A DNA stretch of 64,000 nt from IMG/VR virus record IMGVR_UViG_3300031992_000005, positions 96,001 to 160,000 of that record; one strand, 5' to 3'. The notes under the pieces are model-generated. The model worked only from the letters and a program-made list of their open reading frames with translations, did no database searches and was not told the DNA's origin. The stretch comes from a virus. Positions within the stretch are counted from its first letter, which is position 1. Each line of letters opens with the position of its first letter. This document shows positions 2,644 to 46,330 of the stretch, piece after piece. A program made the translations under genes and the position numbers.

Positions 2644-3980
2644 TGCCTAGAAAGAAAAAAGAAATAGAAGAACCAGTATTAAGGCCAATAGAGGTACTGC
2701 CTATTGGAGAAGCTACTGAACAAGCTATTCTAAATGCAGCCTCATATATAGATAATCAAAGAGCCTTAGCCAATGTAAAGGATGGATGTAAGGTTAGCTA
2801 TAGGCGACTCATTTGGTCTGCATTGCAATTCCCTAGAGGAGTAATGCAGCCAAGTGTAGAAGTTATTAACAAAATGGCTTCTTATCATCCACATAGCCTT
2901 GACTCAATGAAACTATTATCTGCATCTTTTGTTAGGACTGGTATATTTTCAGGAACAGGTTCTTTTGGAACAACTTCTATCTTAGGAGATGTTAAGGAAC
3001 CAGCTGCTCCTAGATACACGCACATGAGGTTAAGCGATCTATATTATGACCAGATCGCACCACTCCTATCGTGCGTAGATATGGTAGAGTCTCCTGTGGG
3101 AGCTCTTGAAATAGACTACTGTCCACTGGCATTGCCACTATGTTTATCTTTAAAAGGATTAGTTAGTGGTATTGGTGTAGGTATTAGTACTGTATATCCT
3201 AACTTTTCACCAAAATCATTATACCTGGCTTATAAGAATAATAATCCACAACTACTAGAACCGAATGTAGATCTAATTATGGATAAAAATAATTCAGAAT
3301 TAGAATCCCTTTGGACAACTGGAAAAGGTAGAATAATATATTCTTATAAACTCAGTCCATATACAAATGAAGACGGAAAGCCAGGATTCTTATTTGAGGG
3401 CGATACCTGTATCTTCACGCCAAACTTGAGAAAGATAAATAAATATGTTGATCAAGGACAGGTATTTATTGAAGATATGACAGACATGAATGGCCCTAAA
3501 ATGTTCGTTGGTCTGATAAGCAATAGAGGTAATCTTAGAATAGAAGACCTAGAGAAGCTTTGTAGACAATGCTGCTTTGATGCCACTGTTTATCAATTAA
3601 ATGTAACAGATGGAACCACCTGTTATAGAATTCCTCTCTATGATTGGATAAACTATACTTATAGAAGATATATCAAACTTCTTGAGCGAGTTAATTTAGA
3701 GAAGATAGAGAAGGTTAAGTTCGAAATAAAAGTACAAGAATCTTTGCCTGAAATTGCGAATTACATTATAAACGTAAATCCAGGTGCAACAGATAAAGAA
3801 ATTTGTACAAACCTAGGAATTGAACCTGAAGTAGTATCAACAGTAATGTCTAAGCCAATAGGACAACTTAGAAAAAATAAAGATAATACTGGGAAAATAA
3901 AAGCATTAAAACAAAGACTAAAGGATCTCCTAGTATTTGATCCAGAACTTTATGTTAAAAATTTAATAGAAAAATTATGA
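2643..3980 (+). CDS. DNA topoisomerase II subunit A (GyrA/ParC/T4 gp52-like)
   Basis: RALANVKDGCKVSYRRLIWSAL matches RALPDVRDGLKPVHRR. ASYHPHSLDSM matches YHPHGD. AAPRYTHMRLS holds the catalytic Tyr in the AxRYTExRL context. The length of 445 aa is similar to T4 gp52. Confidence 0.85.
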   Translation: MPRKKKEIEEPVLRPIEVLPIGEATEQAILNAASYIDNQRALANVKDGCKVSYRRLIWSALQFPRGVMQPSVEVINKMASYHPHSLDSMKLLSASFVRTGIFSGTGSFGTTSILGDVKEPAAPRYTHMRLSDLYYDQIAPLLSCVDMVESPVGALEIDYCPLALPLCLSLKGLVSGIGVGISTVYPNFSPKSLYLAYKNNNPQLLEPNVDLIMDKNNSELESLWTTGKGRIIYSYKLSPYTNEDGKPGFLFEGDTCIFTPNLRKINKYVDQGQVFIEDMTDMNGPKMFVGLISNRGNLRIEDLEKLCRQCCFDATVYQLNVTDGTTCYRIPLYDWINYTYRRYIKLLERVNLEKIEKVKFEIKVQESLPEIANYIINVNPGATDKEICTNLGIEPEVVSTVMSKPIGQLRKNKDNTGKIKALKQRLKDLLVFDPELYVKNLIEKL

Positions 3981-4279
3981 ATCAAAAATATTTTACAATT
4001 CGTATCCCAGGCAACTTATTGTCTGATGCTGCAGGAAGTAATTTCCCAATATTATGGAAAAATCTTCCAAGTGAATTAAAGAAACGTCTCCCAGAGTATT
4101 TCCTTGAGAATCTTTTCGTAGTCGATTCAAATGGTGAACTAAAAGAAAAAACCTTTGTTTACTTACAAGAATTAGAGCTCGATGAAGATCTAACAGAAGA
4201 AGTGGTACTGAGAGATTGTCAAGTATTTGATGGAGGAAATATTAATTTCCTGATTGACCCAGAAGCAGATGAAATATGA
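3977..4279 (+). CDS. Hypothetical protein
   Basis: ORF with an ATGA overlap with the upstream gene. No recognisable motif. Confidence 0.7.
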   Translation: MNQKYFTIRIPGNLLSDAAGSNFPILWKNLPSELKKRLPEYFLENLFVVDSNGELKEKTFVYLQELELDEDLTEEVVLRDCQVFDGGNINFLIDPEADEI

Positions 4280-4830
4280 TATTAGGAAATTCGCTTGAAG
4301 CAATAGTTGAGGCATGTTACCTAGGAGAATCCCTAACAAAGAAAACAGGAAGAGCTAATATTCTTGTTAATCCTAAAGACTACCTCGACTATATAATTGG
4401 AAGAACTATTATTATCAATAGTAGTGTAATCCCAATTGATACAATCAGGACTCTACAAGAAAATAAGAACAAAATTATCTGTAGAGTTAAGCGTGAGGAT
4501 TTTCCCTATTATCCTTATGTACTTAGAGTTAATTTCAATGTAAGATGGAATGGGCAGGTTCTTGATTGCCCTAAAACCAATATTCCTGAAATTAGCTCTT
4601 GGATCTGGGGATCAGAGGACTTTGAATTGGAATTTGATACCGGCGAAAAACCTGTAATGTATTTCCCAAAAATAAAAGGAATACCAAAGGAACTTCTTAT
4701 AGATGAATGTGGAAATCTGAACTTCCTAGGATGGGTTCTACAACAGGTAGGAGTTAATGTGACACTGGAAACAAAATTTCATGACATGGATATTATAAAA
4801 ACAAAAAAGCTTGTAACATTACCAGAATGA
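4276..4830 (+). CDS. Hypothetical protein
   Basis: ORF with an ATGA overlap with the upstream gene. No recognisable motif. Confidence 0.7.
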   Translation: MILGNSLEAIVEACYLGESLTKKTGRANILVNPKDYLDYIIGRTIIINSSVIPIDTIRTLQENKNKIICRVKREDFPYYPYVLRVNFNVRWNGQVLDCPKTNIPEISSWIWGSEDFELEFDTGEKPVMYFPKIKGIPKELLIDECGNLNFLGWVLQQVGVNVTLETKFHDMDIIKTKKLVTLPE

Positions 4831-4853
4831 ATCCTCCTAAATCCTTATATATG
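4831..4853 (+). promoter_or_regulatory. Promoter-like motif, class A (ATCCnnnTAAAnCCTTATATATG)
   Basis: ATCCTCCTAAATCCTTATATATG lies immediately after a stop codon. It is followed by an ORF-less ~95-nt unit that ends at terminator 4912-4948. Confidence 0.4.
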
Positions 4854-4911
4854 AGCATCACTGACAATAGTGGTGAATTGCAATAATTAGTTTTATATTC
4901 AAATGAATTCA

Positions 4912-4948
4912 AGAGATCCGTTCGTGAGAATAGATCTCTCTTTTTTTT
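4912..4948 (+). terminator. Intrinsic terminator, GNRA-capped family
   Basis: AGAGATC-cg-TTC-GTGA-GAA-ta-GATCTCT followed by T9. Confidence 0.7.
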
Positions 4949-4950
4949 CT

Positions 4951-4971
4951 TCCCTGAAACCCTTAATAATG
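4951..4971 (+). promoter_or_regulatory. Promoter-like motif, class A
   Basis: TCCCTGAAACCCTTAATAATG, 21 nt upstream of ATG 4992. Confidence 0.45.
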
Positions 4972-4991: not shown

Positions 4992-5909
4992 ATGGATTCA
5001 AGACAAAAATTTTTAATGATAAAGCTAGCAGCTCTTGAGAAGAGAGAGTTAGAATTTATAAATCATTCAAACCGTGATTGTCCTCAATGTAAAAAAATCA
5101 AAGAGATTTTTCAGATGGATTTGAATTTGAGGGCCCAAATCTTAGACATGGAAGTATCAGAATTAGAGAAAACAGCGGATGAAATCCTGAAAAGACACAA
5201 CAATATATATCGTTGGCCTCCTAAGCGCTTTAGGGAAATTAAAAAGGAACCTGCCCCAGAGATAGAATCTTATACTGATCCTCTTGAAAAGGAAATAGTA
5301 GAACTGTTAAAAAATCGAGTTGGAATACATATTGTCGACGATGACTTATTAAAAGGTCTGATTGAAAATTCTAAATTAAATGATCATATATGTAAAAAAG
5401 TTGGAGAACCATCAGTACAAATAACTGACGCTGAATTGAGACTAGACTATCGTACCTATCAGATAGAAATGATTACTGAATTTAGTGCATGTAGTTATAA
5501 TAATGAACTGATAATTCCTATTAAAGGAATGTTTTCAGAGGATTTTAAGAAAAATCTGATAGACTACGTTAATAGGAGTGAGAAAATTGATGATGAAATC
5601 CGAGAACTTGGTTTTAGTAACAATGAAATAAAAGATAAGAGAAATATTCGAAAATTAGCGAAAGCTATGTCTTTGGATCAAATCCCAATTAACGTCCGTG
5701 TTTTGGGACTGGCAGTAATTGGTACAGAGTTGTGTTTAGATTTTGGTCCAATACATTTTAAAAACAATACGTCATTACGAATTTATTGGAATGATGAAGA
5801 TTGGGAAGACAACAATCGATATATCAAACTTAGAGACTTACCTATTAAGGTGAAAGAAATAATAGTTAACATCTTAAAACGTAAGAAGAAAAATGCCAAA
5901 CTGGTGTGA
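4992..5909 (+). CDS. Hypothetical protein
   Basis: Long ORF behind the promoter-like motif. It contains CPQC but no diagnostic domain. Confidence 0.75.
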   Translation: MDSRQKFLMIKLAALEKRELEFINHSNRDCPQCKKIKEIFQMDLNLRAQILDMEVSELEKTADEILKRHNNIYRWPPKRFREIKKEPAPEIESYTDPLEKEIVELLKNRVGIHIVDDDLLKGLIENSKLNDHICKKVGEPSVQITDAELRLDYRTYQIEMITEFSACSYNNELIIPIKGMFSEDFKKNLIDYVNRSEKIDDEIRELGFSNNEIKDKRNIRKLAKAMSLDQIPINVRVLGLAVIGTELCLDFGPIHFKNNTSLRIYWNDEDWEDNNRYIKLRDLPIKVKEIIVNILKRKKKNAKLV

Positions 5910-6501
5910 TACAACTTACATTTGTGTAGGAAATCCTATCGAGATTCGTCAATTGCATAAAGCAATAGTAACGAATATGAGAAGAAAAACTAGTCGTGTC
6001 AAGAATGATTTTGGCACTCTCTGGTTAGGCAACATTATTGATCAACTCGGCGGTAATTGGAAAGACTGGAATTGTAGAGGTTCAATTCTAAACTATTATA
6101 TAGAAAGAGCCTCTAAAGTTAATTCTAATAAACTTGTAAAACTTACTATTTACCAAACAACTGCTTGGAATGAACAGGAGGGATTTAGAAAATTTATTGA
6201 ACAGAAGTTTCCATCTATCAAAGTCTACTACTTGGAAATAGAACCAGAAGATTCAAGGTTTAGAACAAACGATGATACTGGTAATTATTTTCCAGATCGC
6301 TATCTTATAGATACTCATTGCGGAATTAAGATGTTTAATACTCTTAAAGAAGTAGCTGAATTTGCATCGAAGAAAGTAGAAAAAACAGTAGATGCTAACG
6401 TAGATGCTATAAAGAAAGCTTTAGATGATATTATATTTGATGTAGACAGTAACGAGGAAGACATCTTTTATGAATTTCATGAAATCCAAGTCATCCCCTG
6501 A
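5893..6501 (+). CDS. Hypothetical protein (N-terminus reminiscent of DUF1281/Api92-like family)
   Basis: It starts MPNWCDTTYICVG, which resembles the MPNWC.N N-termini I recall for DUF1281-type proteins. This family call is tentative. Confidence 0.65.
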   Translation: MPNWCDTTYICVGNPIEIRQLHKAIVTNMRRKTSRVKNDFGTLWLGNIIDQLGGNWKDWNCRGSILNYYIERASKVNSNKLVKLTIYQTTAWNEQEGFRKFIEQKFPSIKVYYLEIEPEDSRFRTNDDTGNYFPDRYLIDTHCGIKMFNTLKEVAEFASKKVEKTVDANVDAIKKALDDIIFDVDSNEEDIFYEFHEIQVIP

Positions 6502-6515
6502 AACCCTTATATATG
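6493..6515 (+). promoter_or_regulatory. Promoter-like motif, class A (unit 1 of array)
   Basis: ATCCCCTGAAACCCTTATATATG overlaps stop codon 6499-6501. Confidence 0.45.
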
Positions 6516-6582
6516 TACCCAGGTATATTATGCCAACCCCAATTACCTGGGTTTGCCAAATTAATCATGTTTTTTTATTAAG

Positions 6583-6614
6583 AAGACTTGCTCGTGAGAG
6601 TAGGTCTTTTTTTT
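6583..6614 (+). terminator. Intrinsic terminator, GNRA-capped family
   Basis: AAGAC-ttg-CTC-GTGA-GAG-tag-GTCTT followed by a T-run. Confidence 0.7.
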
Positions 6615-6637
6615 ATCCCCTTAAATCCTTATTAATG
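6615..6637 (+). promoter_or_regulatory. Promoter-like motif, class A (unit 2)
   Basis: ATCCCCTTAAATCCTTATTAATG directly abuts the preceding T-run. Confidence 0.45.
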
Positions 6638-6686
6638 TCTCAGAAAAAAGTTTTTTTATGTCATCTTGTATTTGATTTTTTAAATG

Positions 6687-6722
6687 AATGGCTTGCTCGT
6701 GATGAGTAGGCCATTTTTTTTT
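6687..6722 (+). terminator. Intrinsic terminator, same family
   Basis: AATGGC-ttg-CTC-GTGAT-GAG-tag-GCCATT followed by T9. Confidence 0.7.
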
Positions 6723-6745
6723 ATCCCCTTAAACCCTTATTAATG
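6723..6745 (+). promoter_or_regulatory. Promoter-like motif, class A (unit 3)
   Basis: ATCCCCTTAAACCCTTATTAATG. Confidence 0.45.
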
Positions 6746-6757
6746 AATATGTCTTTA

Positions 6758-6828
6758 GGGAGCCTCGGCAATAGTAACCCCGGTCTTAGGTTATCACTAG
6801 CCACGTGGTAACGGGTTACTGGGCTCCC
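6758..6828 (+). ncRNA. Candidate structured small RNA (Y-shaped, ~71 nt), paralog of 7060-7125
   Basis: A 7-bp closing stem GGGAGCC/GGCTCCC is followed by T7. An internal long hairpin reads GGC-aa-TAG-TAACC[9-nt loop]GGTTA-tca-CTA-GCC. A short hairpin GTAA-CGGG-TTAC follows it. The unit lies between a promoter-like motif and a T-run and has no meaningful ORF. Confidence 0.5.
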
Positions 6829-6835
6829 TTTTTTT

Positions 6836-6858
6836 ATCCCTTAAATTCCTTATAATTG
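6836..6858 (+). promoter_or_regulatory. Promoter-like motif, class A (unit 4)
   Basis: ATCCCTTAAATTCCTTATAATTG. Confidence 0.45.
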
Positions 6859-6896
6859 GATTAATACTCATATTTTGTTTTTTATTTAATACTAAA

Positions 6897-6929
6897 GGCC
6901 CACGTCTGTGAAGATATGGGTCTTTTTTT
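6897..6929 (+). terminator. Intrinsic terminator, same family
   Basis: GGCCCA-cg-TCT-GTGA-AGA-ta-TGGGTC followed by T7. Confidence 0.65.
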
Positions 6930-6952
6930 ATCCCTTTAGTTCCTTATATATG
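6930..6952 (+). promoter_or_regulatory. Promoter-like motif, class A (unit 5)
   Basis: ATCCCTTTAGTTCCTTATATATG. Confidence 0.45.
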
Positions 6953-6986
6953 AACATTTGTTAATAATATTTTAATTGTTAATGTG

Positions 6987-7017
6987 AATGGTTTGCCTGG
7001 GAAGGTAGACCATTTTT
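6987..7017 (+). terminator. Intrinsic terminator, same family
   Basis: AATGGT-ttg-CCT-GGGA-AGG-tag-ACCATT followed by T6. Confidence 0.65.
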
Positions 7018-7021
7018 TCAA

Positions 7022-7044
7022 ATCCCTTTAAACCCTTATATATG
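7022..7044 (+). promoter_or_regulatory. Promoter-like motif, class A (unit 6)
   Basis: ATCCCTTTAAACCCTTATATATG. Confidence 0.45.
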
Positions 7045-7059
7045 AGTTAGTCGTGAGAA

Positions 7060-7125
7060 GGGAGCCATTCGAGTAGTCCGGACCTTGAGACCGTCTACGG
7101 ACGGTAATGGGATTACAGGCTCCCC
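7060..7125 (+). ncRNA. Candidate structured small RNA (~66 nt), paralog of 6758-6828
   Basis: It has the same closing stem GGGAGCC/GGCTCCC followed by T10. The internal hairpin reads GTCCG-GAC[9-nt loop]GTC-ta-CGGAC. The short hairpin is GTAAT-GGG-ATTAC. It shares GGTAAyGGGwTTAC..GGCTCCC with the first copy. Confidence 0.5.
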
Positions 7126-7139
7126 ATTTTTTTTTTCAA

Positions 7140-7162
7140 ATCCCGTTAAATTCTTATATATG
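7140..7162 (+). promoter_or_regulatory. Promoter-like motif, class A (unit 7)
   Basis: ATCCCGTTAAATTCTTATATATG. Confidence 0.45.
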
Positions 7163-7195
7163 TTAAGAACATGGCATAGATTTTTTTAGCATTTA

Positions 7196-7240
7196 AAGGA
7201 AATTCGCTCGTGATGAGTAGATTTCCTTGCTTTTTTTTCT
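7196..7240 (+). terminator. Intrinsic terminator, same family
   Basis: AAGGAAAT-tcg-CTC-GTGAT-GAG-tag-ATTTCCTT, then GC and T8. Confidence 0.7.
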
Positions 7241-7241
7241 G

Positions 7242-7271
7242 TTCCCAGAGAAGGATTTCCTTATAAGTATG
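7242..7271 (+). promoter_or_regulatory. Promoter-like motif, long-spacer variant
   Basis: TTCCCAGAGAAGGATTTCCTTATAAGTATG, 23 nt upstream of ATG 7294. Confidence 0.4.
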
Positions 7272-7293
7272 AATAGTATAAATTTTAGGTTAT

Positions 7294-8343
7294 ATGTTAA
7301 CAATTGTACCAGATGTTGAACAGGTTGTGGAAGATATTTATATAGAACATATTCAAAAAGGTAAAGGAGTTGGATTGAATTATAGAATTTATCCACTTAC
7401 CCCTGATGGCGGCGATATTTATACAGATACGGGATATATACCAACTATATGTTTTAATAATAATCCATCCACAGCAAAAACATTACCGATCATAAACCTA
7501 GTTTCTTCGAGAATAGATAAATTTAAATCTGGGAATACGGGTAATGCTATGAACGTATTTAACTATTTGAAAAATGACTACAGTCCTAGTATAGGGGTTC
7601 CCGATCTAATATTGATTAGAGAATACCCAATTCCTATAGATAATCCCAACGTATGGAAGAAATATGTAATTAAAGAATTTAAAAATGATCTGAATAATCT
7701 AGATTTTAAATTCCTAAATAGAAGTTTTATTAGTTTAGACGTTTATTCACCACAGCAAAAATTAGCAATAGAAGCAGATTCTAGTAAATATCACTCTGGA
7801 ATTAATGAAAGAAAAGATTGGGTAAGGGACAGATATTTAGAAGACGTTGTTGGAATAGATACAATTCGAATTATGGACTTTATTCCTTCTTCTGAATATA
7901 ATATAAACGAATTTAAAAAGAAACTGGATAATTATAAGATCAATAAAACTAAAGACGCTTATTACCCAGAACCTAAAAAACTTGCTTCTACAGTTTTTAA
8001 TTATAATAATACCCCACTAGTAAAAGAAACTGTTAATTATATAAGAAATTTCGTATACAGGGAAAATCACTTAGAAGATAAGCCCTCTAATAACCTAGCT
8101 TATAGAATTTTATCCTATTTTATGAGTCTTGAACTTAAAATTAAATTTGTGGGAGAAAGTTTATTTACAATGGGAGATTATAAGAATAGAGCAAGAAACT
8201 TTCTAATGACAGTAAAAACTATCATAAATAAAACAATCAAAGATCCAACACTGGAATTTTTAATTTCCGATGAAGATGTCCAATATTATATTGACTGTAA
8301 TTATAAAAAAGGAATTCTGAAGCACTTAATTCCTTACAAATGA
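7294..8343 (+). CDS. Vsr/DUF559-like (restriction-endonuclease-fold) domain protein; possible free-standing homing endonuclease
   Basis: The central LDVYSPQQKLAIEADSSKYHSGINERKDWVRDRYLEDVVGIDTIRI fits the DUF559/Vsr pattern (D...l.iE.DG..H......D..R...L...G..v.R). It is paralogous to 46331-46903. Confidence 0.6.
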   Translation: MLTIVPDVEQVVEDIYIEHIQKGKGVGLNYRIYPLTPDGGDIYTDTGYIPTICFNNNPSTAKTLPIINLVSSRIDKFKSGNTGNAMNVFNYLKNDYSPSIGVPDLILIREYPIPIDNPNVWKKYVIKEFKNDLNNLDFKFLNRSFISLDVYSPQQKLAIEADSSKYHSGINERKDWVRDRYLEDVVGIDTIRIMDFIPSSEYNINEFKKKLDNYKINKTKDAYYPEPKKLASTVFNYNNTPLVKETVNYIRNFVYRENHLEDKPSNNLAYRILSYFMSLELKIKFVGESLFTMGDYKNRARNFLMTVKTIINKTIKDPTLEFLISDEDVQYYIDCNYKKGILKHLIPYK

Positions 8344-8508: not shown

Positions 8509-8901
8509 TTACTCGATCATAATAGACTTCTTATTTGTCTTCTCATAATCCTTTGGAATAGTAATAGTTAGAACACCTAGTTCAACTTTTGCTTTAATAT
8601 TACCTAGGTCACACCCATAAGGAATCTCTATTCTCTTATTGATCTTATCCGGCCTAAATTCGTGTCTCAACCATTTATTGTTTTTATTAGTAGTGTCGGT
8701 CTTACTTTTAACGATTAAAACATCATCTTCAACAGAAATATCAATGTCTTCTTTATTGAGACCAGTTGCTCTTAATTCAATTACAAAAGAATCTTCAGTT
8801 TCGCTAAGATTCATTAGAGATGCGCTTACCCATGAAGTAGGAAAAAATAAATCTTCAAACATAATTATTATAAATTTTAAAGTTAAACGTATTGGGTACA
8901 T
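8509..8901 (-). CDS. Small heat-shock protein (Hsp20/alpha-crystallin family)
   Basis: FVIELRATGLNKEDIDISVEDDVLIVKSK...RHEFRPDKINKRIEIP...IKAKVELGVLTITIPK is a typical alpha-crystallin domain. The real start may be the internal ATG at 8862 (MFEDLFFP..). Confidence 0.85.
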   Translation of the reverse strand: MYPIRLTLKFIIIMFEDLFFPTSWVSASLMNLSETEDSFVIELRATGLNKEDIDISVEDDVLIVKSKTDTTNKNNKWLRHEFRPDKINKRIEIPYGCDLGNIKAKVELGVLTITIPKDYEKTNKKSIMIE

Positions 8902-9012: not shown

Positions 9013-10068
9013 ATGAGTGATTTATTAAAGCAACTAGTAAACATTCCATCTCCTACGGGAAATGAAGAAAGAATTACAGAATTCTTAAATTCCGAATTTA
9101 CTAAGAAAGGATTTGAGGTAGAGTTCCAGGACAAGTTTGGAAATATTGCATTTTCAATAGGCTCTAATTGCCCAGGAACAAAGATCCTACTATCCGCACA
9201 CCATGATGAATTAGGATTTATGGTTTGTCATATAACGGATAATGGAGGATGTAGATTGATGAGAACTAGTGGAGAAGATAGAAGAATTCTTCCTGGAGCA
9301 TCACTCTTAGTACTTACAGACAAAGGTCCAGTAACAGGAGTAATTGTTCATAAGCCAATTCATGTTCAAGATGATGAAGAATATGGCGAAGTTACTAAAA
9401 TGAAGGACCTTATCCTTGACCTTGGTTGTAGCAATAAGCAAGAGGTATTAGATATGGGTGTTCATGTAGGAACAAGAGCCGTATTTACAAGAGGACAAGA
9501 AATGATACATTTCGGAAGTTCAGGAAAATACATTTGTGCACCTGGCCTGGATGATAAGATCGGTGTATACTGTGTAATGAGAGCTATGATTTATGCACAG
9601 GAACACGAAGAAGATCTAATTAGAAAAGGTATCAGAATATACTTTGCATCTCTCAGTGGAGAAGAATCCGGTTTAAGAGGAGCTAGAGTAGCAGCTAGAA
9701 GAATTAATCCAGATTATTCCATTGACATCGATGTTACTCCATCTACAGAGGATGACATGGGAATCTCTAAGGATGAATTCGGAGATATCGAATTGGGTAA
9801 AGGCGTAGTAATTGCTTATGGACCAGACAAGAATCTTGAATTGACAGAACTTCTTAGATCTTTAGCTGGTGACAAAGTTCAATTAGAGGCTACTAGAGCA
9901 GGAAGTACTAACACTGCTAAAATACAAGAAAATGCTCTAGACTGCGCAACTGCCCTCTTAAGTATCCCTAATAAAAATATGCATCAACCATTTGAGATTT
10001 GTCACTGGGATGATGTAGAGGATTGTATAAGTTTGTTGGAAAAATATATTTCTCACATTGCAGAATAA
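9013..10068 (+). CDS. M42-family metallopeptidase (FrvX/glutamyl aminopeptidase-like)
   Basis: LLKQLVNIPSPTGNEE, SAHHDELGFMV, APGLDDKIGV and SGEESGLRGA match the conserved metal-ligand blocks of the M42 family. Confidence 0.8.
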   Translation: MSDLLKQLVNIPSPTGNEERITEFLNSEFTKKGFEVEFQDKFGNIAFSIGSNCPGTKILLSAHHDELGFMVCHITDNGGCRLMRTSGEDRRILPGASLLVLTDKGPVTGVIVHKPIHVQDDEEYGEVTKMKDLILDLGCSNKQEVLDMGVHVGTRAVFTRGQEMIHFGSSGKYICAPGLDDKIGVYCVMRAMIYAQEHEEDLIRKGIRIYFASLSGEESGLRGARVAARRINPDYSIDIDVTPSTEDDMGISKDEFGDIELGKGVVIAYGPDKNLELTELLRSLAGDKVQLEATRAGSTNTAKIQENALDCATALLSIPNKNMHQPFEICHWDDVEDCISLLEKYISHIAE

Positions 10069-10264: not shown

Positions 10265-10286
10265 TCGACTCCCCTAATTTTTTTTT
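10252..10286 (+). terminator. Intrinsic terminator
   Basis: AGGGGA..12-nt loop..TCCCCT, then AA and T9. Confidence 0.65.
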
Positions 10287-10309
10287 GCCCCGTCATATCC
10301 TTATTATTG
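10287..10309 (+). promoter_or_regulatory. Promoter-like motif, class A variant
   Basis: GCCCCGTCATATCCTTATTATTG, 21 nt upstream of ATG 10330. Confidence 0.4.
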
Positions 10310-10329
10310 TAGATATAAATTTTAGTGAT

Positions 10330-11382
10330 ATGGAAAGATTTTATGAATTAAGTGAAATTACATTATTACCAAAAGCAGTGAATCATGGTTTTCAAAGTAT
10401 TGAGAAATATGATTTTTATGTAGAAGATCTTGAGGATCATACTGGAATTTCAAGAACCTTGCCAATATTTACTGCTCCGAGAGAAAGTATTATCGGGAAG
10501 GATAATGCTAAGTTATTCCAGGATAAAGGAATCCGACCAATTCTTCCGGCATCAGAGGATATTAATGTAAGATTGGAGTATTGTCAATGGATTTTCTGTT
10601 CTTTCACTCTCGGGGAAATAAGAAAACATTTCTGTGAGAGAAAGGCAATATATGATGATAGAACACAACTACACGTCAATATTGAAACAGATAACGGCCA
10701 TTCTGAAGGTCTCCTAGCTATATGTAAAAACCTTCGCCGATTATATGGTGCACAGATTATAATTATGGCAGGTAATATAGGAAGAGATACTACTTACAAG
10801 GAATATTGTAATTCCGGAGTTGATTACATTAGAGTGGGAATAGGAACAAGCTCCTTAGAGGAAGGAGACAATTCAGGTTTTTATTTCCCACTAGGTAGTC
10901 TCTTGGATGCTATAAAAAACTATAAAAGAGTAAACAGTGCAATATTACCTAGACAAACAAAATTAGTGGTCGATGGAGGACTTGAATCTATCACAGATGT
11001 TATAAAGGCCTTTGCATTAGGGGCTGATTATGTCATGATCGGATTTATGTTTGCAGGACTCTTGGAAGCTGCAGGACCACTCAGAAAAAGCGATAAGAAT
11101 AAAGATGGTTCTACAAACTTCAATGTAGTTGATCCAAATTCATTGGCGGGCATGACAGGACCACAACTCAGATCTAATGGGCTCTGTAGACAATATTACG
11201 GGAATAATGAGTTTAATTTCCGAAAATTCTCTCCAAAATGGATCGGAGTAAAGAAAACGTTAGATGAATGGGTACAAGAATTTATCGAAAAATCTTACTA
11301 TGCATTTACTATGTCAGATGTATCTAATTGGGCAGATTTTGGAAGATCAACAACTTACGGAATATCTTTGGGAGGTAGATAA
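10330..11382 (+). CDS. IMPDH/GMP reductase (GuaC)-family TIM-barrel protein, apparently lacking the catalytic Cys
   Basis: IMAGNIGRDTTYKEYCNSGVDYIRVGIGTSS and LVVDGGLESITDVIKAFALGADYVMIGFMFAG align with GuaC [36 protein letters not shown] and [32 protein letters not shown]. The start is set at ATG 10330 because the TTG at 10285 lies inside the terminator/promoter cassette. Confidence 0.7.
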   Translation: MERFYELSEITLLPKAVNHGFQSIEKYDFYVEDLEDHTGISRTLPIFTAPRESIIGKDNAKLFQDKGIRPILPASEDINVRLEYCQWIFCSFTLGEIRKHFCERKAIYDDRTQLHVNIETDNGHSEGLLAICKNLRRLYGAQIIIMAGNIGRDTTYKEYCNSGVDYIRVGIGTSSLEEGDNSGFYFPLGSLLDAIKNYKRVNSAILPRQTKLVVDGGLESITDVIKAFALGADYVMIGFMFAGLLEAAGPLRKSDKNKDGSTNFNVVDPNSLAGMTGPQLRSNGLCRQYYGNNEFNFRKFSPKWIGVKKTLDEWVQEFIEKSYYAFTMSDVSNWADFGRSTTYGISLGGR

Positions 11383-22603: not shown

Positions 22604-23341
22604 TTATTTCTTCACGGATAATGAGCTCTTAAATCCATGAAGTTTTTTCAAATTCTCATCTGACAGAGGGCTACTAGTTCTAATAACCCTCTTGACAATA
22701 TTGTAGGAGCCATGATTCTCGATATTTGATGGCGGCTTCAAAAGACCTAACTGAATCTTAGCAGCCTTATCACCCGAAGCGTTTACCTCATTATAGAAAG
22801 TTTTGAGCGCAATCAATGCCTCAAAGGAGATATAGATGCAATCACCACTCTCCAATGGCAATGCACAAGCTCGAGTGCCCTTCACCGTCTCAATAGGGAA
22901 ATTCAGGTCAAACCTTCTGAGAGCCTTGTTCTCTTCTTCACCGAACTCAGTCTTTCCTTGCTTTGACATTCTTTCCTGTATCTTCTTAATCTGGTTCTTA
23001 CGATCCTTGTGATACTTTTCAATGCTATCAAGGTCAGATAGACGAATATTCAAGATAGGACATCTTGCTATATTGTTCACCTTCAACTGTGGATCAAGCT
23101 TCTTAATGAGGAATGTGCCAAGATCCTTCTTATCAGTTACTTGGCCAACCACTTTGAAAAGGAACCTGATATACTTCAGTTTTCCTCCACCAGCCTCAAT
23201 CAGATCAGCAATCTTCAAGATGGCCTCTTGAGCTTTCACCAGGTCAAAAGGATGTTTTCCTGCTGCATCCCACTTAGTGTCTTCTTCTAGACAATATTTC
23301 TCCTTAATGGAGAGAAACACACTTTTCCTTTTCTTTATCAT
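22604..23341 (-). CDS. Hypothetical protein
   Basis: 245-aa ORF with its own promoter-like motif and terminator. Confidence 0.7.
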   Translation of the reverse strand: MIKKRKSVFLSIKEKYCLEEDTKWDAAGKHPFDLVKAQEAILKIADLIEAGGGKLKYIRFLFKVVGQVTDKKDLGTFLIKKLDPQLKVNNIARCPILNIRLSDLDSIEKYHKDRKNQIKKIQERMSKQGKTEFGEEENKALRRFDLNFPIETVKGTRACALPLESGDCIYISFEALIALKTFYNEVNASGDKAAKIQLGLLKPPSNIENHGSYNIVKRVIRTSSPLSDENLKKLHGFKSSLSVKK

Positions 23342-23367: not shown

Positions 23368-23390
23368 CATATATAAGATTTTAAAGGGAA
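23368..23390 (-). promoter_or_regulatory. Promoter-like motif, class A (minus strand)
   Basis: The reverse complement reads TTCCCTTTAAAATCTTATATATG. It is preceded by a UUCG-capped terminator (GCC-TTCG-GGC plus T-run). Confidence 0.45.
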
Positions 23391-23444: not shown

Positions 23445-23750
23445 TTACTTTTTCTCTTCTTCCTTGTTGTTCTTTTCCTGCTGACCTTGACCTGGTTCTG
23501 GTTTTTGTTCAGGTTGTTCAGTCGTTGGAAACCTCTTATCGAGGCCCCTTTTTGCAGATTTCATTGTGTCACCAATAGCATCGGTAACTTTGTCCATCGC
23601 TGCGTTAGCTACAATCGCTACTAAGATAGCGGCTCCGACCAATGTACCTGCGGCAATAATGCCGAGGATGATCATAATGATCGACTTCACCACTTTGTTA
23701 ATGCTACGTTTCTGAGCAGTCTTGATCTGTTTTTTGTTAATCTTTTCCAT
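23445..23750 (-). CDS. Small membrane protein (one TM helix, charged C-terminal tail)
   Basis: The TM segment is IIMIILGIIAAGTLVGAAILVAIVANAA. The tail is rich in K, E, Q and P. It forms a monocistronic unit with a class B motif and a terminator. Confidence 0.65.
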   Translation of the reverse strand: MEKINKKQIKTAQKRSINKVVKSIIMIILGIIAAGTLVGAAILVAIVANAAMDKVTDAIGDTMKSAKRGLDKRFPTTEQPEQKPEPGQGQQEKNNKEEEKK

Positions 23751-23792
23751 GATTTCTTAAGTTTTAAAGTTGAACATAAAATTTAACTGTTT

Positions 23793-23828
23793 CTATATAT
23801 AAGGCATTTTTCCTCTTTTAGGAAGGAA
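23793..23828 (-). promoter_or_regulatory. Promoter-like motif, class B (minus strand)
   Basis: The reverse complement reads TTCCTTCCTAAAAGAGGAAAAATGCCTTATATATAG. It is preceded by terminator GGGCGGAATTTCCGCCC plus a T-run. Confidence 0.4.
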
Positions 23829-23858
23829 AAAATAAAGGGCGGAAATTCCGCCCACCTT

Positions 23859-23930
23859 TTAAAAATAGAAGATTTTCTGGAGAAAACCTGATATGATTGG
23901 CCAGATTACTTCGTCAAATACTCTAAACAT
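23859..23930 (-). CDS. Micro-ORF (23 aa, hydrophobic)
   Basis: MFRVFDEVIWPIISGFLQKIFYF. Its ATG lies 1 nt after the stop of the preceding micro-ORF. Confidence 0.25.
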   Translation of the reverse strand: MFRVFDEVIWPIISGFLQKIFYF

Positions 23931-23931
23931 A

Positions 23932-24081
23932 TTAATACAACGTTTTTTTTAAGTTAGACATAAATCTTTTAAAACCATAATCTTGTATAGCTCTCATCAA
24001 GTCATACGTCTGATCACCTATTGCTGTGCCATGATGTCCACATATATATGCAGATAATCCAGTTAAAATCTTCATAATCAT
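23932..24081 (-). CDS. Micro-ORF (49 aa)
   Basis: MIMKILTGLSAYICGHHGTAIGDQTYDLMRAIQDYGFKRFMSNLKKTLY. It has an ATGA-type overlap with the preceding micro-ORF. Confidence 0.3.
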   Translation of the reverse strand: MIMKILTGLSAYICGHHGTAIGDQTYDLMRAIQDYGFKRFMSNLKKTLY

Positions 24082-24221
24082 AATCCTCTGCTGTTTCTAA
24101 TTTTTTCATCAGCCTTTCTTCCAAAAGCTGAATCTAAATAATATCGATATAAAATTTCGGTACCAATCGCCGCTACTGCAGCTTCCATACCTACTACAAT
24201 AATTGTTGCTAAATAATACAT
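24078..24221 (-). CDS. Micro-ORF (47 aa, N-terminal TM helix)
   Basis: MYYLATIIVVGMEAAVAAIGTEILYRYYLDSAFGRKADEKIRNSRGL. It is the first cistron behind class B motif 24264-24293. Confidence 0.3.
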   Translation of the reverse strand: MYYLATIIVVGMEAAVAAIGTEILYRYYLDSAFGRKADEKIRNSRGL

Positions 24222-24263
24222 AATGTTGTTTATTTTTAAAATTGTTAGAAATTATTAATATTT

Positions 24264-24839: not shown

Positions 24840-25376
24840 TTAGAAGAAATCCACTATTATATAAGAAACAGAATTATATACAGGCCTTCTATACAACAAT
24901 TTATTCCAGATCCAAGGAATAGGTAATAAACAATACCAGAAGTGCTTTTTATCTATTTCTGGAAAATAGTTATGTGATGTAATATCAGACGTTGTAATAA
25001 AATTCCACTTAGGCTTTTTTATTGCAATAAAACCTACCTTACAACCTTCTGGTATCCAACCTGCAACTAGGTTAATAAAATCCTCAGGATAAGAATGCCA
25101 ATCTCCCTCATAAGTAAAGTTAAGAATACACTCATGACCCTTAAAGAGATTCATTGCTTCTTTAACTGTCATCTTACTTCTCCAAAGACCATGAGCAAAT
25201 ACCCACGTATCTCCCTTTTCTTTTACTCTAAGATCAAACCAGGTAATACCACTATTAAGCTGTTCTGACAAAGTTTTTCTTTGACACTTAGCAAAGATCT
25301 TACCTAGTCGACTTAAAAACCCAGAACTTTTCTCACCTGTCGCACTATTATGCGTTCCGATTTTCAATGAATTCAT
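24840..25376 (-). CDS. PI-PLC X-domain-like phosphodiesterase
   Basis: IGTHNSATG...QRKTLSEQLNSGITWFDLRV...FAHGLW fits the PLC-X pattern (GTHdS ... Q..i..QL..G.R.fDlRv ... HG). Confidence 0.5.
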   Translation of the reverse strand: MNSLKIGTHNSATGEKSSGFLSRLGKIFAKCQRKTLSEQLNSGITWFDLRVKEKGDTWVFAHGLWRSKMTVKEAMNLFKGHECILNFTYEGDWHSYPEDFINLVAGWIPEGCKVGFIAIKKPKWNFITTSDITSHNYFPEIDKKHFWYCLLPIPWIWNKLLYRRPVYNSVSYIIVDFF

Positions 25377-26727
25377 TATATTTAATTTTAATAAAATTTT
25401 CCAAAGCCTCAGGAGTATTTTCTAACACTCCATCTAAAACTGCCTCTTTCATAGCATTTTTTATTAGACCGACCATTCTTCCTTTTCCAATACCTAGGAT
25501 TTCCATTATCTCATTTCCTCCAAGGCATGGTTGAAAAAGCCGAACGAGATCTTTTTCTTGCAGGTCACTAATCATCTTTCTTAACTTATCATAGTGATCC
25601 TGTAACCTCATTCTTTTCGAGGGTCTTCTCGAAGTTACGTCAGATTCACAAAGGAGTAGTAGGTCTTCTAAATCTTCTCCAGCATCATAAATAAGCCTTC
25701 TAACAGCACTATCAGTAATAACTGAAGTACTAATCATAGCTGGCCTCATGTGCATATCAACCAGCTTTTGAACATAGTCTTTCTTACCTATCCTAAGCCT
25801 ATCAAGAACTCCTGGTATTAAGTTAGCCCCAATATGTTCATGATTATAGAAGGTCCACTCTCCTGTAGTAGGATCAAATCTCTGAGTAGAAGCTTTTCCA
25901 ATATCATGAAGAAGAGCCGCTATTCTAAGGTAAGGATTAGTTGTTTTCCCCACAATATTTCTCAAAACCTGTAAAGAATGCTTATAATTATCCTTATGTC
26001 CTTCAAGATCATTTCCTGCTTTAAGGGCAGTTAACTCAGGGAGAATCATTTCAAGGAGTTCAGCTGCATCTAGGAGTTCAATTCCTGCAACTGGATCGGG
26101 AGAAGCCATGATTTTTAGAAATTCCGTGCCAATCCTATCAGGGGTTAGAATTTTTATTCTATCCTTCAAAACCTTCATTGCATCAATTAGTCTCGAATCT
26201 ATGAGAAAACCCAATTTACACGTGAATCTAATAGCTCTGAACATGCGCAATGGATCATCCTTGAAAGTAATCATGGGATCCGTTGGTGTCATTATAATCT
26301 TACTTTTTAAATACTTTCGTCCATCAAACGGATCAACATACTCCCCAAAATGCTTCTCATTAAGACACATGGCAATAGTATTTATAGTAAAATCCCTTCT
26401 CATCTGATCATCATATAATGTACCTGGTACTACAGAAGGTTTTCTACTATCTGGGCTATAGGATTCTTTCCTAGCCCCAACAAATTCTACTTCTAGGTTA
26501 TTATACTTTACTGCGGCAGTTCCATAACGTTCATATCTGAGAACCTTACTCTGATGAATCTCCTTGGCAAATTCATCCGCCATCTTTACACCATCACCGA
26601 CGACAACAATATCAATGTCGTCATTTTCTATACCTAGAAGCTTATCTCTTACGTATCCACCTATAACATAACATGGTAGATTAATTTTGTCTGCTACTTT
26701 TCCAATTAATTTTAATAAGTCTTCCAT
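25348..26727 (-). CDS. cca: tRNA nucleotidyltransferase (CCA-adding enzyme) with HD domain
   Basis: YVIGGYVRDKLLG..DDIDIVVVGDG holds the Pol-beta nucleotidyltransferase GG/DxD. RRDFTINTIAM and DPLRMFRAIRF are head/neck motifs. LLHDIGK is the HD domain. Confidence 0.85.
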   Translation of the reverse strand: MEDLLKLIGKVADKINLPCYVIGGYVRDKLLGIENDDIDIVVVGDGVKMADEFAKEIHQSKVLRYERYGTAAVKYNNLEVEFVGARKESYSPDSRKPSVVPGTLYDDQMRRDFTINTIAMCLNEKHFGEYVDPFDGRKYLKSKIIMTPTDPMITFKDDPLRMFRAIRFTCKLGFLIDSRLIDAMKVLKDRIKILTPDRIGTEFLKIMASPDPVAGIELLDAAELLEMILPELTALKAGNDLEGHKDNYKHSLQVLRNIVGKTTNPYLRIAALLHDIGKASTQRFDPTTGEWTFYNHEHIGANLIPGVLDRLRIGKKDYVQKLVDMHMRPAMISTSVITDSAVRRLIYDAGEDLEDLLLLCESDVTSRRPSKRMRLQDHYDKLRKMISDLQEKDLVRLFQPCLGGNEIMEILGIGKGRMVGLIKNAMKEAVLDGVLENTPEALENFIKIKYNEFIENRNA

Positions 26728-26747: not shown

Positions 26748-26770
26748 CATATATAAGGAAAATAAAGGGA
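26748..26770 (-). promoter_or_regulatory. Promoter-like motif, class A variant (minus strand)
   Basis: The reverse complement reads TCCCTTTATTTTCCTTATATATG, 20 nt upstream of the cca ATG. Confidence 0.4.
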
Positions 26771-26941
26771 GGCATTTCGCTATTAGGAGAGTTGAGCCTA
26801 AGTATCTTCACCTCATACTCAGACCCAAACTCCTAATAATAGATAAGACTTTCCAGTCTCACCGACCAAGACCCCTCCATTAATGGGCCTTAAGCGAAAT
26901 CCTCATTAGTAAGGGGATAATGGGTAGTGAAGTGAGTTTTT

Positions 26942-26966
26942 ATTCCCTTTAATGCCTTATATATAG
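26942..26966 (+). promoter_or_regulatory. Promoter-like motif, class B
   Basis: ATTCCCTTTAATGCCTTATATATAG. It is followed by a ~65-nt ORF-less unit ending at terminator 27002-27035. Confidence 0.4.
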
Positions 26967-27001
26967 CTAGAAAGCATTTTATTATTATTAATACTGCAGA
27001 A

Positions 27002-27035
27002 AGAGTCGGTCCGGGATGGATAGACTCTTTTTTTT
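27002..27035 (+). terminator. Intrinsic terminator
   Basis: AGAGTC..GGTCCGGGATGGATA..GACTCT followed by T9. Confidence 0.65.
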
Positions 27036-27060
27036 ATTCCCGTTAAAACCTTATTAAAAG
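27036..27060 (+). promoter_or_regulatory. Promoter-like motif, class A
   Basis: ATTCCCGTTAAAACCTTATTAAAAG, 17 nt upstream of ATG 27077. Confidence 0.4.
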
Positions 27061-27076
27061 AAATAAAATAAAATAA

Positions 27077-27532
27077 ATGGGAACAAATGGTTTTTTCGAG
27101 AAAATGAAAAGAGGTTTTAGAGAACCTACAAAACTCGAATGGGAAAATAATCAACCGTCGACCCAGGGACAGAGAGTAGATGAGAATAAAGAAAAAGACT
27201 CATCTAATGAAGAACCCCTCCCCGTATTTGGAACAATATATTTATCGGGATTAGGGAAAGAACAGAGATCTATGAAAAGAGTATCTGGATCAGAGGTAAG
27301 ACTTCTTCATTCAACCGGAAAGTTATTTGTAGATATTCCGGGATTCTCTCAAGTAGATTCGAGTATATGGGTAATAGGTGACAGATATAGATTCATACCC
27401 ACATCTAAGTTACCGGGTCGATTTAACAATCTCTTATTCGAAGTGAAACACTTTGATGGAGATTTGATTAATGCTAGACTAATAACAAATGACGGCGAAT
27501 TACTCGTCGGAAAAGTATTGGTTAGGCTATGA
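27077..27532 (+). CDS. Hypothetical protein
   Basis: 151-aa ORF. No motif recognised. Confidence 0.7.
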   Translation: MGTNGFFEKMKRGFREPTKLEWENNQPSTQGQRVDENKEKDSSNEEPLPVFGTIYLSGLGKEQRSMKRVSGSEVRLLHSTGKLFVDIPGFSQVDSSIWVIGDRYRFIPTSKLPGRFNNLLFEVKHFDGDLINARLITNDGELLVGKVLVRL

Positions 27533-34515: not shown

Positions 34516-34931
34516 AAAGACTTAATGAAGAAGGACAAGTAGTAAATCCAATTTTAGCTGAATTTGAAGAAGACTCCGATAAGGAAAGAGCAGATCAGAT
34601 TGTACTTGGTTGGAATAATGTAGAAGAAGCCGCTAAGGAAATTCTTAGTACAGTACTAAGCAGACTAGTATCTCCAGAGACAATCCCAGTATTTCTTTGG
34701 AAAAATACAGATTCAAACTCTGACCTACAACAGATCGTAGTTGTAGATAATAATACAGGATCAGATGATTTCGGATTAGGTATTATTCATGCAGGATATA
34801 CAATGGTTTTGCCACACATCCCTTTCTCCTACTTAGAAACAGATGTCATTACTGACATGAAGAAGTATAAGATTGGTAAGGATATTATTACGGCATATGA
34901 AAAAATTCTAAACAGATGGAGAAAAGAATGA
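34512..34931 (+). CDS. Hypothetical acidic protein
   Basis: The start is set at ATG 34512 (ATGA overlap with the previous stop). No motif recognised. Confidence 0.65.
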   Translation: MKRLNEEGQVVNPILAEFEEDSDKERADQIVLGWNNVEEAAKEILSTVLSRLVSPETIPVFLWKNTDSNSDLQQIVVVDNNTGSDDFGLGIIHAGYTMVLPHIPFSYLETDVITDMKKYKIGKDIITAYEKILNRWRKE

Positions 34932-46218: not shown

Positions 46219-46330
46219 AGTGAAAAAACGCAGTTCTTGAGGCATAAATACCTTAAGGTTGAAAGAGCGTTTGTTAAGGTTGAGTCTAAACAATGATGTT
46301 CTTGGACTCAGCCCTTCTTTTATTTATCTT

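Follow-up and report, generated by a model that had tools for sequence, protein, structure and literature searches.

Within a 64-kb window of viral DNA (64,000 nucleotides, positions 96,001 to 160,000 of the IMG/VR record IMGVR_UViG_3300031992_000005), we describe an array of short repeated units that lies between open reading frame (ORF) 5893-6501 and ORF 7294-8343. These two ORFs are separated by 790 nt with no credible gene. The array extends over positions 6493-7273 and consists of seven strong copies and one degenerate copy of a 23-nt promoter-like motif. Each of its seven units is 92-122 nt long and has its own promoter-like motif and predicted terminator: in every case a stable hairpin and a run of 6 to 10 T residues follow 65-100 nt after the motif and abut the next one. 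The features of the array, and of two outlying units found elsewhere in the window, are the following.

6493..6515, + strand: promoter-like motif of unit 1 (ATCCCCTGAAACCCTTATATATG), overlapping the stop codon of ORF 5893-6501; matrix score 32.9
6517..6552, + strand: 5' stem-loop of unit 1, with a 9-bp stem and an 18-nt C-rich loop
6580..6614, + strand: predicted terminator of unit 1, hairpin CUUG-CUC-GUGA-GAG-UAGG and U8
6615..6637, + strand: promoter-like motif of unit 2; matrix score 32.2
6638-6685, + strand: body of unit 2, U-rich and unstructured
6686..6722, + strand: predicted terminator of unit 2, hairpin CUUG-CUC-GUGAU-GAG-UAGG and U9
6723..6745, + strand: promoter-like motif of unit 3; matrix score 32.9
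6757..6835, + strand: GC-rich three-helix structure of unit 3, ~70 nt (GGGAGCC...GGCUCCC), and U7; homologous to the unit 6 structure
6836..6858, + strand: promoter-like motif of unit 4, with TTG instead of ATG at its 3' end; matrix score 27.8
6894..6929, + strand: predicted terminator of unit 4, hairpin tip G-UCU-GUGA-AGA-UA and U7
6930..6952, + strand: promoter-like motif of unit 5; matrix score 30.2
6986..7018, + strand: predicted terminator of unit 5, hairpin UUUG-CCU-GGGA-AGG-UAGA and U6
7022..7044, + strand: promoter-like motif of unit 6, an exact consensus; matrix score 34.4
7060..7136, + strand: GC-rich structure of unit 6, ~65 nt, and U10; homologous to the unit 3 structure
7140..7162, + strand: promoter-like motif of unit 7; matrix score 30.1
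7196..7238, + strand: predicted terminator of unit 7, hairpin tip G-CUC-GUGAU-GAG-UA and U8
7242..7273, + strand: degenerate eighth motif (TTCCC...TTCCTTATAAGTATG), the promoter-like element of protein gene 7294-8343
4831..4948, + strand: outlying unit, with motif at 4831-4853, hairpin at 4912-4939 (tip G-UUC-GUGA-GAA-UA) and U8
4949-4971, + strand: gene promoter-like motif after the preceding unit, ahead of ORF 4992-5909
26943..27035, + strand: outlying unit, with motif at 26943-26965, hairpin at 26998-27032 (tip G-UCC-GGGAU-GGA-UA) and U8
27037-27059, + strand: gene promoter-like motif after the preceding unit, ahead of ORF 27077-27532

When searched as ATCCCNTTAAANCCTTATAWATG with at most 3 mismatches, the motif gave 10 matches in the window against 0.03 expected from shuffles, on the + strand at 4831, at 26943 and at the strong array copies (6493, 6615, 6723, 6836, 6930, 7022 and 7140), and on the - strand at 23390. 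A position weight matrix made from the motif copies gave 15 matches against 0.15 in shuffles. A preliminary description of the locus had counted eight copies in the array; pattern and matrix recovered seven of them, and the eighth, at 7242, proved degenerate and below the matrix cut-off, with a good 3' half and a TTCCC block shifted by ~5 nt. This last copy is simply the promoter-like element of gene 7294-8343, 20 nt before its start. The same description had reported seven hairpin and T-run ends abutting the next motif, which folding and the T-runs bore out, with energies of about -12 to -20 kcal/mol for the array hairpins and z-scores of -2.6 to -5.6 for the folds of whole units. It had also placed further units near 4.8 and 26.9 kb. 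Both indeed have the same design, and each is followed by another motif copy and a real gene. Along the array the order of unit types is A-A-B-A-A-B-A, where B stands for the GC-rich units 3 and 6; units 2 and 5 are alike in the lower stem, which suggests an old duplication of a three-unit block.

The motif also occurs 17-26 nt before the start codons of ORFs 4992, 27077 and 22604-23341(-), and looser copies precede other window genes on both strands, always oriented towards the gene. In other viral and metagenomic contigs (L005, L016 and L014) it precedes genes too. Since it stands upstream of real genes, relatives included, the motif behaves as the promoter of the phage. Its 3' end, TATAWATG, matches five of the six specified positions of TAnnTTTG, the -7 box of Bacteroidota sigma-A that is given for Bacteroides thetaiotaomicron in PMC7366714 and for Segatella copri in bioRxiv 10.1101/2024.04.05.588293. 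This resemblance becomes an exact match in two L016 copies, which end in TATATTTG; copies of the L014 group end in TAWTAGTG. A -33 box (TTTG, 19-21 nt before the -7 box) is absent, its place being taken by the T-run of the preceding terminator or by unrelated sequence; positions of about -15 to -25 are occupied by a conserved TCCC-N-TTAAA block. In S. copri, the -33 box is present in only 15% of promoters (bioRxiv 10.1101/2024.04.05.588293). The TCCC-N-TTAAA part is specific to the phage clade. From position and resemblance we infer that the motif is a promoter of this clade, read by the host polymerase, possibly together with a phage factor.

In units 1, 2, 4, 5 and 7 and in the two outlying ones, the hairpin has a variable lower stem topped by a common tip, G-YYY-GNGA(U)-RRR-UA. 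As is typical of intrinsic terminators, the hairpin (-12 to -20 kcal/mol) is followed by U6-U10 in nine of nine units. Fold and covariance analysis, which the preliminary description had suggested, yielded stable folds: when 24 hairpins from four phages were aligned, 98.5% of cells were paired, with compensatory changes in 11 of 12 pairs. None of 500 shuffles reached the observed pairing or covariation, and shifted registers came nowhere near either. A G.U pair is kept in 22 of the 24 hairpins; this and the covariation argue for a + strand RNA helix rather than a DNA palindrome.

To a strict version of this hairpin (CTTG-YYY-GTGA(N)-RRR-TAGG, 2-8 nt, TTTTT) there were at least 120 matches in IMG/VR and at least 120 in GTDB genomes; among the GTDB matches listed ~85% were from Bacteroidales, with a few to about 15 matches expected by chance. 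In the scanned Bacteroidales and viral loci the hairpin follows ORFs in 46-72% of cases, and in Bacteroidales genomes it also ends small RNAs (sRNAs), FopS homologues among them. We had considered a phage-specific terminator and rejected it, as the hairpin is common in Bacteroidales genomes, often after ORFs; judged by these matches, it is a host-type terminator flavour, not specific to the window phage. Within the window, all seven GNGA-type hairpins (six found by pattern plus the unit 4 variant) stand in units without an ORF, and the remaining terminator-like sites listed there all lack a GNGA-type tip. Across Bacteroidales and phages (loci L020-L259), the hairpin CUUG-YYY-GUGA(N)-RRR-UAGG with its U-run keeps two wobble pairs, and the sequence itself is conserved, not pairing alone. 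GUGA is also the commonest loop (13/296) among the remaining terminator-like hairpins of these loci. Our literature searches found no paper describing these hairpin sequences.

The unit bodies had been described as lacking consistent ORFs, with unconserved peptides of 2-24 codons opened by the motif ATG, and translation of each unit led to the same result. The motif ATG opens 22, 24 and 22 codons in units 1, 2 and 3 and 4, 2 and 9 codons in units 5, 6 and 7, with no ATG in unit 4, and the products have nothing in common. The sole longer ORF in the array, 6470-6709 (79 amino acids), spans the end of the upstream gene, two motifs and a terminator, and would be a false gene call if annotated. We thus rejected the notion of coding units, since the short peptides share nothing and the longer ORF crosses a terminator and a promoter. 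AU-rich and mostly unstructured bodies characterize units 1, 2, 4, 5 and 7 and both outliers, with a 5' stem-loop in unit 1 and in one outlying unit (unit 0). The single-stranded 5' parts of 25 unit bodies, pooled from four phages, have 21% GC and more T than A (501 versus 395). An argument that contrasted U-rich bodies with A-rich leaders was dropped as not robust, the window leaders being roughly balanced; these leaders are 78% A+T. Between units, promoters are 82% and hairpin tips 62% identical, and bodies reach 0.60 compared to 0.55 ± 0.14 for shuffled sequences.

Units 3 and 6 carry a GC-rich structure of ~70 nt, missed in the preliminary description, in which the closing helix GGGAGCC/GGCUCCC encloses a middle helix and an apical hairpin; it is followed by U7-U10 and has ~55% GC in a 33% GC genome. 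The two structures look clearly homologous. Two details were read directly from the sequence: the middle helix is kept by compensatory change (GUAACCC/GGGUUAC versus GUAGUCC/GGAUUAC), and a D-arm-like pairing of unit 6 is not kept in unit 3. The latter, together with the lack of a T-arm, led us to reject a tRNA-like fold. No homologues of the structure were found in any fetched locus or in IMG/VR, and ARAGORN and Rfam detected no tRNA or tmRNA gene in the window.

Among known RNA families, the best Rfam result was FopS (RF04319), with 21.0 bits for unit 2 and 16.7 bits for unit 5 against a gathering threshold of 56, and it was driven by the terminator; the Rfam models of FopS and BTnc201 align weakly to units 2 and 5 via this element. 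There were no FopS matches in the related arrays. Membership in the FopS family and mimicry of its seed were both rejected (21 versus 56 bits; seed p of 0.026 among 25). The idea that bacterial hairpin matches are antisense to gene starts turned out to be wrong: the 'UUUUUCAU' that precedes many of these matches is the FopS-type anti-start-codon seed.

Similar arrays exist in related phages. The preliminary description had proposed looking for them, and a tandem two-motif scan of metagenome contigs combined with a hairpin scan recovered arrays of six and five units in L014 and L017 (111 and 326 kb), of about ten units in L067 (162 kb) and L132, and of about six to seven units in L116, as well as partial arrays in the short loci L135 and L138 and two units before a gene in the 1.4-kb L016. 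Unit counts in these related arrays span 2 to about 10, and every unit has a body of its own. Near-identical genomes differ in unit count, with breakpoints inside the terminator-promoter junctions. L014 has one unit more than L017, whose second unit is a chimera of two L014 units, and L116 lacks units found in L067 and L132. Between L014 and L132 the flanks are 80-82% identical over 4 kb of genes, and the array bodies are not collinear. Array copy number likewise differs between L067/L132 and L116/L138, with chimeric junctions within terminator-promoter modules, and promoter 3' ends are swapped between otherwise identical units (units 3 and 4 of L067 versus L132), suggesting gene conversion.

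For the window phage itself no close but non-identical relative was found, and module-driven indels are seen in its relatives only. Searches via the flanking proteins gave no close relatives in IMG/VR and only near-identical copies in the protein collection, and the window DNA had no match in GenBank phages. Five loci, each with a single match, came from an IMG/VR scan for the motif; in one of them, L005, the motif precedes two genes, and another, L001, shares an SbcC/gp46-like region with 42-47% amino acid identity. The tandem-motif scan of IMG/VR gave chance matches only. Two loci that are simple repeats (L015 and L018) and one that is a pentapeptide-repeat gene (L019) were rejected as array loci.

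We tentatively favor, at slightly less than even odds, the reading that the array is a battery of genes for small RNAs and that its junctions serve to shuffle cassettes as well. Each unit would then combine a standard 23-nt phage promoter, a unique body of 35-70 nt and a strong intrinsic terminator of host type. Initiation is predicted a few nucleotides past the motif and termination within the U-run, which would yield seven different RNAs of ~60-95 nt with little read-through. Early in infection these RNAs may base-pair with host or phage RNAs or sequester proteins on them; these modes of action appear most likely because the architecture matches that of the Bacteroides trans-acting sRNAs FopS and GibS. 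The near-identical junctions of ~45-60 nt would serve as recombination substrates through which cassettes are added, deleted or swapped, much like the PeSLs of T4-type phages, which are terminator/promoter modules that mediate indels (PMC2839356, PMC4122927). The repeated entity is really this composite terminator-promoter junction, a point likewise missed in the preliminary description; the junction also flanks ordinary small genes, as PeSLs do. Hairpin, T-run and motif occur together at 4912-4971, throughout 6580-7273 and at 26998-27059, and in looser form near 23390(-) and 24290(-).

The preliminary description had left the choice between a battery for short RNAs and a decoy. Of these, the battery is favored and the decoy disfavored, because the design recurs in related phages, always with a different body per unit. 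That the bodies are cargo rather than filler is favored because direct repeats ~100 nt apart should collapse, yet persist in three diverged lineages, and because units 3 and 6 keep their structure. Several points nevertheless weigh against such a battery. The bodies show no conservation between diverged phages, and unconstrained spacer DNA would look alike. For the array units there were no Rfam matches at gathering level, only sub-threshold ones in the window and in the related arrays. The FopS R1 seed (UUUUUCAUGGUAUUAGAUUUAAGG) reached a best p value of 0.026 against shuffles in the 25 unit bodies, which is not significant after 25 tests. A search of the window for antisense targets of the bodies gave only low-complexity matches of 14-17 nt, and duplex energies with 67 window translation-initiation regions were no better than those with internal gene segments or of reversed sRNAs. 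The bodies are modestly enriched in CAU, as computed with no control for dinucleotide bias. No reader is known for the conserved half of the motif, TCCC-N-TTAAA, so that the promoter call draws on position and the -7-like end only. Finally, we infer, rather than observe, the transcription of the units, the ends, abundance and timing of their RNAs and any regulatory function.

It is somewhat unlikely, in our judgment, that the units are instead empty PeSL-like cassettes, with the junction as the functional element that insulates and drives small early genes, the bodies as filler and the RNAs as by-products. Such an array would accumulate as modules recombine and lose, or never gain, a gene, and may persist as a landing pad for gene shuffling. 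This would fit with the presence of the same hairpin, T-run and motif junction around ordinary small genes on both strands, with bodies that are at random similarity in the array and unalignable between phages with 80-82% identical flanks, and with the gain and loss of units between near-identical genomes at breakpoints in the modules. The phage also carries T4-type recombination genes, and PeSLs are documented in T4-type phages (PMC2839356, PMC4122927). However, recombination between two direct modules leaves a bare module, not a module with a unique body of 35-70 nt, and unequal crossing-over predicts duplicated bodies, none of which were seen. Unselected repeats 100 nt apart should moreover vanish, yet arrays persist in at least three diverged lineages; in units 3 and 6 the helices of the GC-rich structure have survived divergence; and the GNGA hairpin in the window is confined to ORF-less units.

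We regard as improbable a role at the level of DNA or of transcription alone, either as a decoy that titrates host RNA polymerase or sigma factor, or a phage factor recognizing TCCC-N-TTAAA, or as a multi-terminator barrier that keeps early transcription from upstream out of the nuclease-like gene that follows. The sole conserved parts are promoter and terminator, with body sequence varying freely, and seven strong serial terminators precede gene 7294-8343, which encodes a PD-(D/E)xK nuclease-like product. As a decoy, though, 7-10 extra promoters would add little to the ~15 copies in the 64-kb window of a genome of more than 200 kb, and it would require neither distinct bodies nor the structured RNAs that units 3 and 6 contain; as a barrier, the array could do without promoters behind its terminators, and the downstream gene is in any case driven by the last promoter. 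Very improbable is the production of leaderless or short-leader micropeptides from the motif ATG or from a different start codon in the body. Six of the seven unit motifs have ATG at their 3' end, 22, 24 and 22 codons are open in units 1-3, the host clade needs no Shine-Dalgarno site, and genuine genes of 45-100 amino acids in the region stand behind the same promoter. In the other units, however, there are 2-9 codons or no ATG, the peptides share nothing, and two of them enter the terminator stem; before real genes (4949, 23390-) the motif ATG soon meets a stop, the real start lying 17-26 nt further on, and motif copies in relatives end in GTG or TTG. We give least credence, close to none, to the idea that a protein involved in replication, partition or packaging recognizes the repeats as DNA sites (iterons, a centromere, a pac site or an origin activated by transcription). 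Eight direct repeats with a spacing of ~100 nt in an AT-rich non-coding stretch would suit such sites, as would the actin/ParM-like gene in the window (34916-35944) and the location of one outlying unit at a strand switch and GC-skew minimum near 26.9 kb. Against this, the motif occurs singly at a fixed short distance before many genes on both strands, pointing at the gene, the hairpins keep G.U pairs and covary in an RNA-like manner, and there is no skew change at 6.5-7.3 kb.

Taken further, the small-RNA battery could represent a hypervariable array of large T4-like Bacteroidales phages, in which 2 to about 10 independently transcribed sRNAs carry unique targeting or decoy bodies on a shared chassis and are exchanged in an integron-like manner via the junctions, forming a rapidly evolving RNA arsenal for host takeover or anti-defense. 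We consider this extended version unlikely and put it forward as speculation. Such RNAs might, for example, silence host mRNAs via the host chaperone RbpB or titrate RNA-binding defense proteins. If true, no such system would have been described before for phages of a clade without Hfq and ProQ.

The window phage is large (more than 200 kb), and its sequence comes from rumen or gut assemblies, with a contig of 0.2-1 Mb. It is present in samples JGI 3300024342 and 3300035054 and SRA SRR9006729/30. Window GC content is 31-38% in 2-kb steps. A Shine-Dalgarno core precedes 4 of 67 window genes, compared to 7 of 67 at control positions inside genes; this scarcity, typical of Bacteroidota, together with the Bacteroidales-type signals points to a host among the Bacteroidales. 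By resemblance, the signals of the array are those of Bacteroidales hosts, a point missed in the preliminary description, and the GUGA hairpin would serve as a clue for host assignment. Among the genes of the phage is one for a gp46/SbcC-like nuclease; the records that match it are mostly enterobacterial phages, T4-type ones included. The window further contains at least six BspA-type leucine-rich-repeat proteins, including those at 11764-14097-, 14114-15571-, 51953-53467, 55986-57305 and 57309-58484, an HNH endonuclease, and the following genes.

8509-8901, - strand: HSP20
9013-10068: M42 aminopeptidase
10285-11382: IMPDH/FMN-dehydrogenase-like protein
25348-26727, - strand: CCA-adding enzyme
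28804-30438: GroEL
34916-35944: actin/ParM-like protein
40978-41835: non-specific nuclease

The family of the gene downstream of the array, 7294-8343 (PD-(D/E)xK nuclease-like), also adjoins the L014 and L017 arrays. It is a paralogous family, with members at 7294-8343 and 46259-46903 in the window and at 3589-4536 and 5388-6140 in L014, and it adjoins arrays in both phage lineages. Its weak PD-(D/E)xK endonuclease domain is of the PvuRts1I or methyl-directed restriction-enzyme type, and in a large protein collection only near-identical homologues were found. Two short contigs, L008 and L009 (JGI 3300035054; SRR9006729), contain gene 7294-8343 alone and start 12 and 23 nt before its ATG. These start points coincide with the end of the promoter motif and may stem from assemblies derived from transcripts or from breaks in assembly at the repeated motif.

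Other stretches without ORFs were also observed. Beside the arrays of relatives, an ORF-less unit of ~270 nt running from promoter to terminator is present in 2-5 copies (L014 6157-7078, L017, L067, L116, L132, L135, L097 and L043). It contains the conserved blocks ACCCTKGTAGCGRTRTAGGTWAGCTA and GGTAGAGATAGRGAGTCGAAAGGA...CTGTCG with a T-run, its indels are not multiples of three and its terminal stem covaries; with no Rfam match and no homologue in the window, these units are candidates for a new structured RNA family. In the window, a GC-richer intergenic stretch of ~140 nt on the minus strand (26770-26905) folds into a closing stem and three hairpins (-65 kcal/mol, z-score of -4.8, compared to -1.3 for the plus strand). 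It lies directly upstream of, and co-oriented with, the promoter-like motif 26758(-) and the gene of the CCA-adding enzyme and is a candidate structured RNA, which is not a tRNA and has no Rfam match. A further motif copy at 42974(+) is followed by ~650 nt, up to 43630, without an ORF of at least 80 amino acids and with long-range complementarity (GGTGAAGTG...CACTTCACC); this region may be a longer non-coding RNA or several tiny genes.

Bacteroidales are a dominant clade of the gut and rumen, and to our knowledge phage-encoded regulatory RNAs remain poorly known. If expressed as predicted, the units would form a compact group of seven phage sRNAs that make use of host signals. A cassette-like evolution of sRNAs would then be illustrated by the related arrays, with a conserved chassis, replaceable bodies and changes in copy number, which would link PeSL-type modular shuffling to RNA-based manipulation of the host. 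Should the RNAs be by-products, the array would still document PeSL-like modules outside the T4 relatives that infect Proteobacteria. For the annotation of these phages, the results offer two rules, the 23-nt promoter motif and the conserved GUGA terminator hairpin shared with Bacteroidales hosts. Neither arrays of this kind nor small-RNA genes of Bacteroidales phages were found described in our literature searches, an absence that is no proof of novelty.

Several known systems invite comparison. CRISPR-type arrays have repeats of 23-47 nt that match the host CRISPR repeat, spacers of similar length and a single precursor transcript. We rejected a CRISPR array, as well as solitary repeats acting as RNA anti-CRISPRs, given units of 92-122 nt with their own terminator and promoter and a hairpin that is a common Bacteroidales terminator after ORFs. 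Clusters of sibling sRNAs, such as LhrC1-4 of Listeria and PrrF1/F2 of Pseudomonas, are likewise head-to-tail short sRNA genes, each with its own promoter and terminator. Siblings share body and seed and differ little, whereas the units of the array share promoter and terminator only and their bodies are all different. The small stable RNAs of T4, species 1 and 2 (RNA C and D) in the tRNA cluster, are short and structured and of unknown function. They are processed from the tRNA precursor transcript rather than made as promoter-terminator units of their own; compared by description only, their closest analogy would be units 3 and 6.

The trans-acting sRNAs of Bacteroides of the FopS and GibS type (PMC7366714, PMC11697453; Rfam RF04319 and RF04182) come closer in architecture. 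A single-stranded 5' region followed by a terminator hairpin is typical of these sRNAs (PMC11697453), and binding to RbpB and targeting of susC mRNAs belong to the known type. Like these sRNAs, the units would have their own promoter, a single-stranded 5' region and a Rho-independent terminator within a total of 60-100 nt. The GUGA tetraloop on a Y-rich/R-rich tip is common to both, as is the occurrence of multicopy families with differing members. In contrast, FopS genes are dispersed in the chromosome, whereas the units are arranged head-to-tail, fall below the Rfam threshold and lack the R1 seed.

At the level of the junctions, the array resembles the PeSLs. In both, a terminator stem-loop is followed by an early-type promoter for the host polymerase, and the module is repeated amid small accessory genes. 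Recombination between modules leads to indels between close relatives (L014 versus L017, L067 versus L116), and the window phage also carries the T4-type gp46-like nuclease. PeSLs flank ORFan protein genes, whereas the modules of the array enclose 35-70 nt of non-coding, unit-specific sequence, even though elsewhere in the window modules do flank small protein genes (for example, 23445-24240(-)). The array further differs in having up to about 10 consecutive modules and in its promoter, which is Bacteroidota-like with an upstream block rather than of the sigma-70 type.

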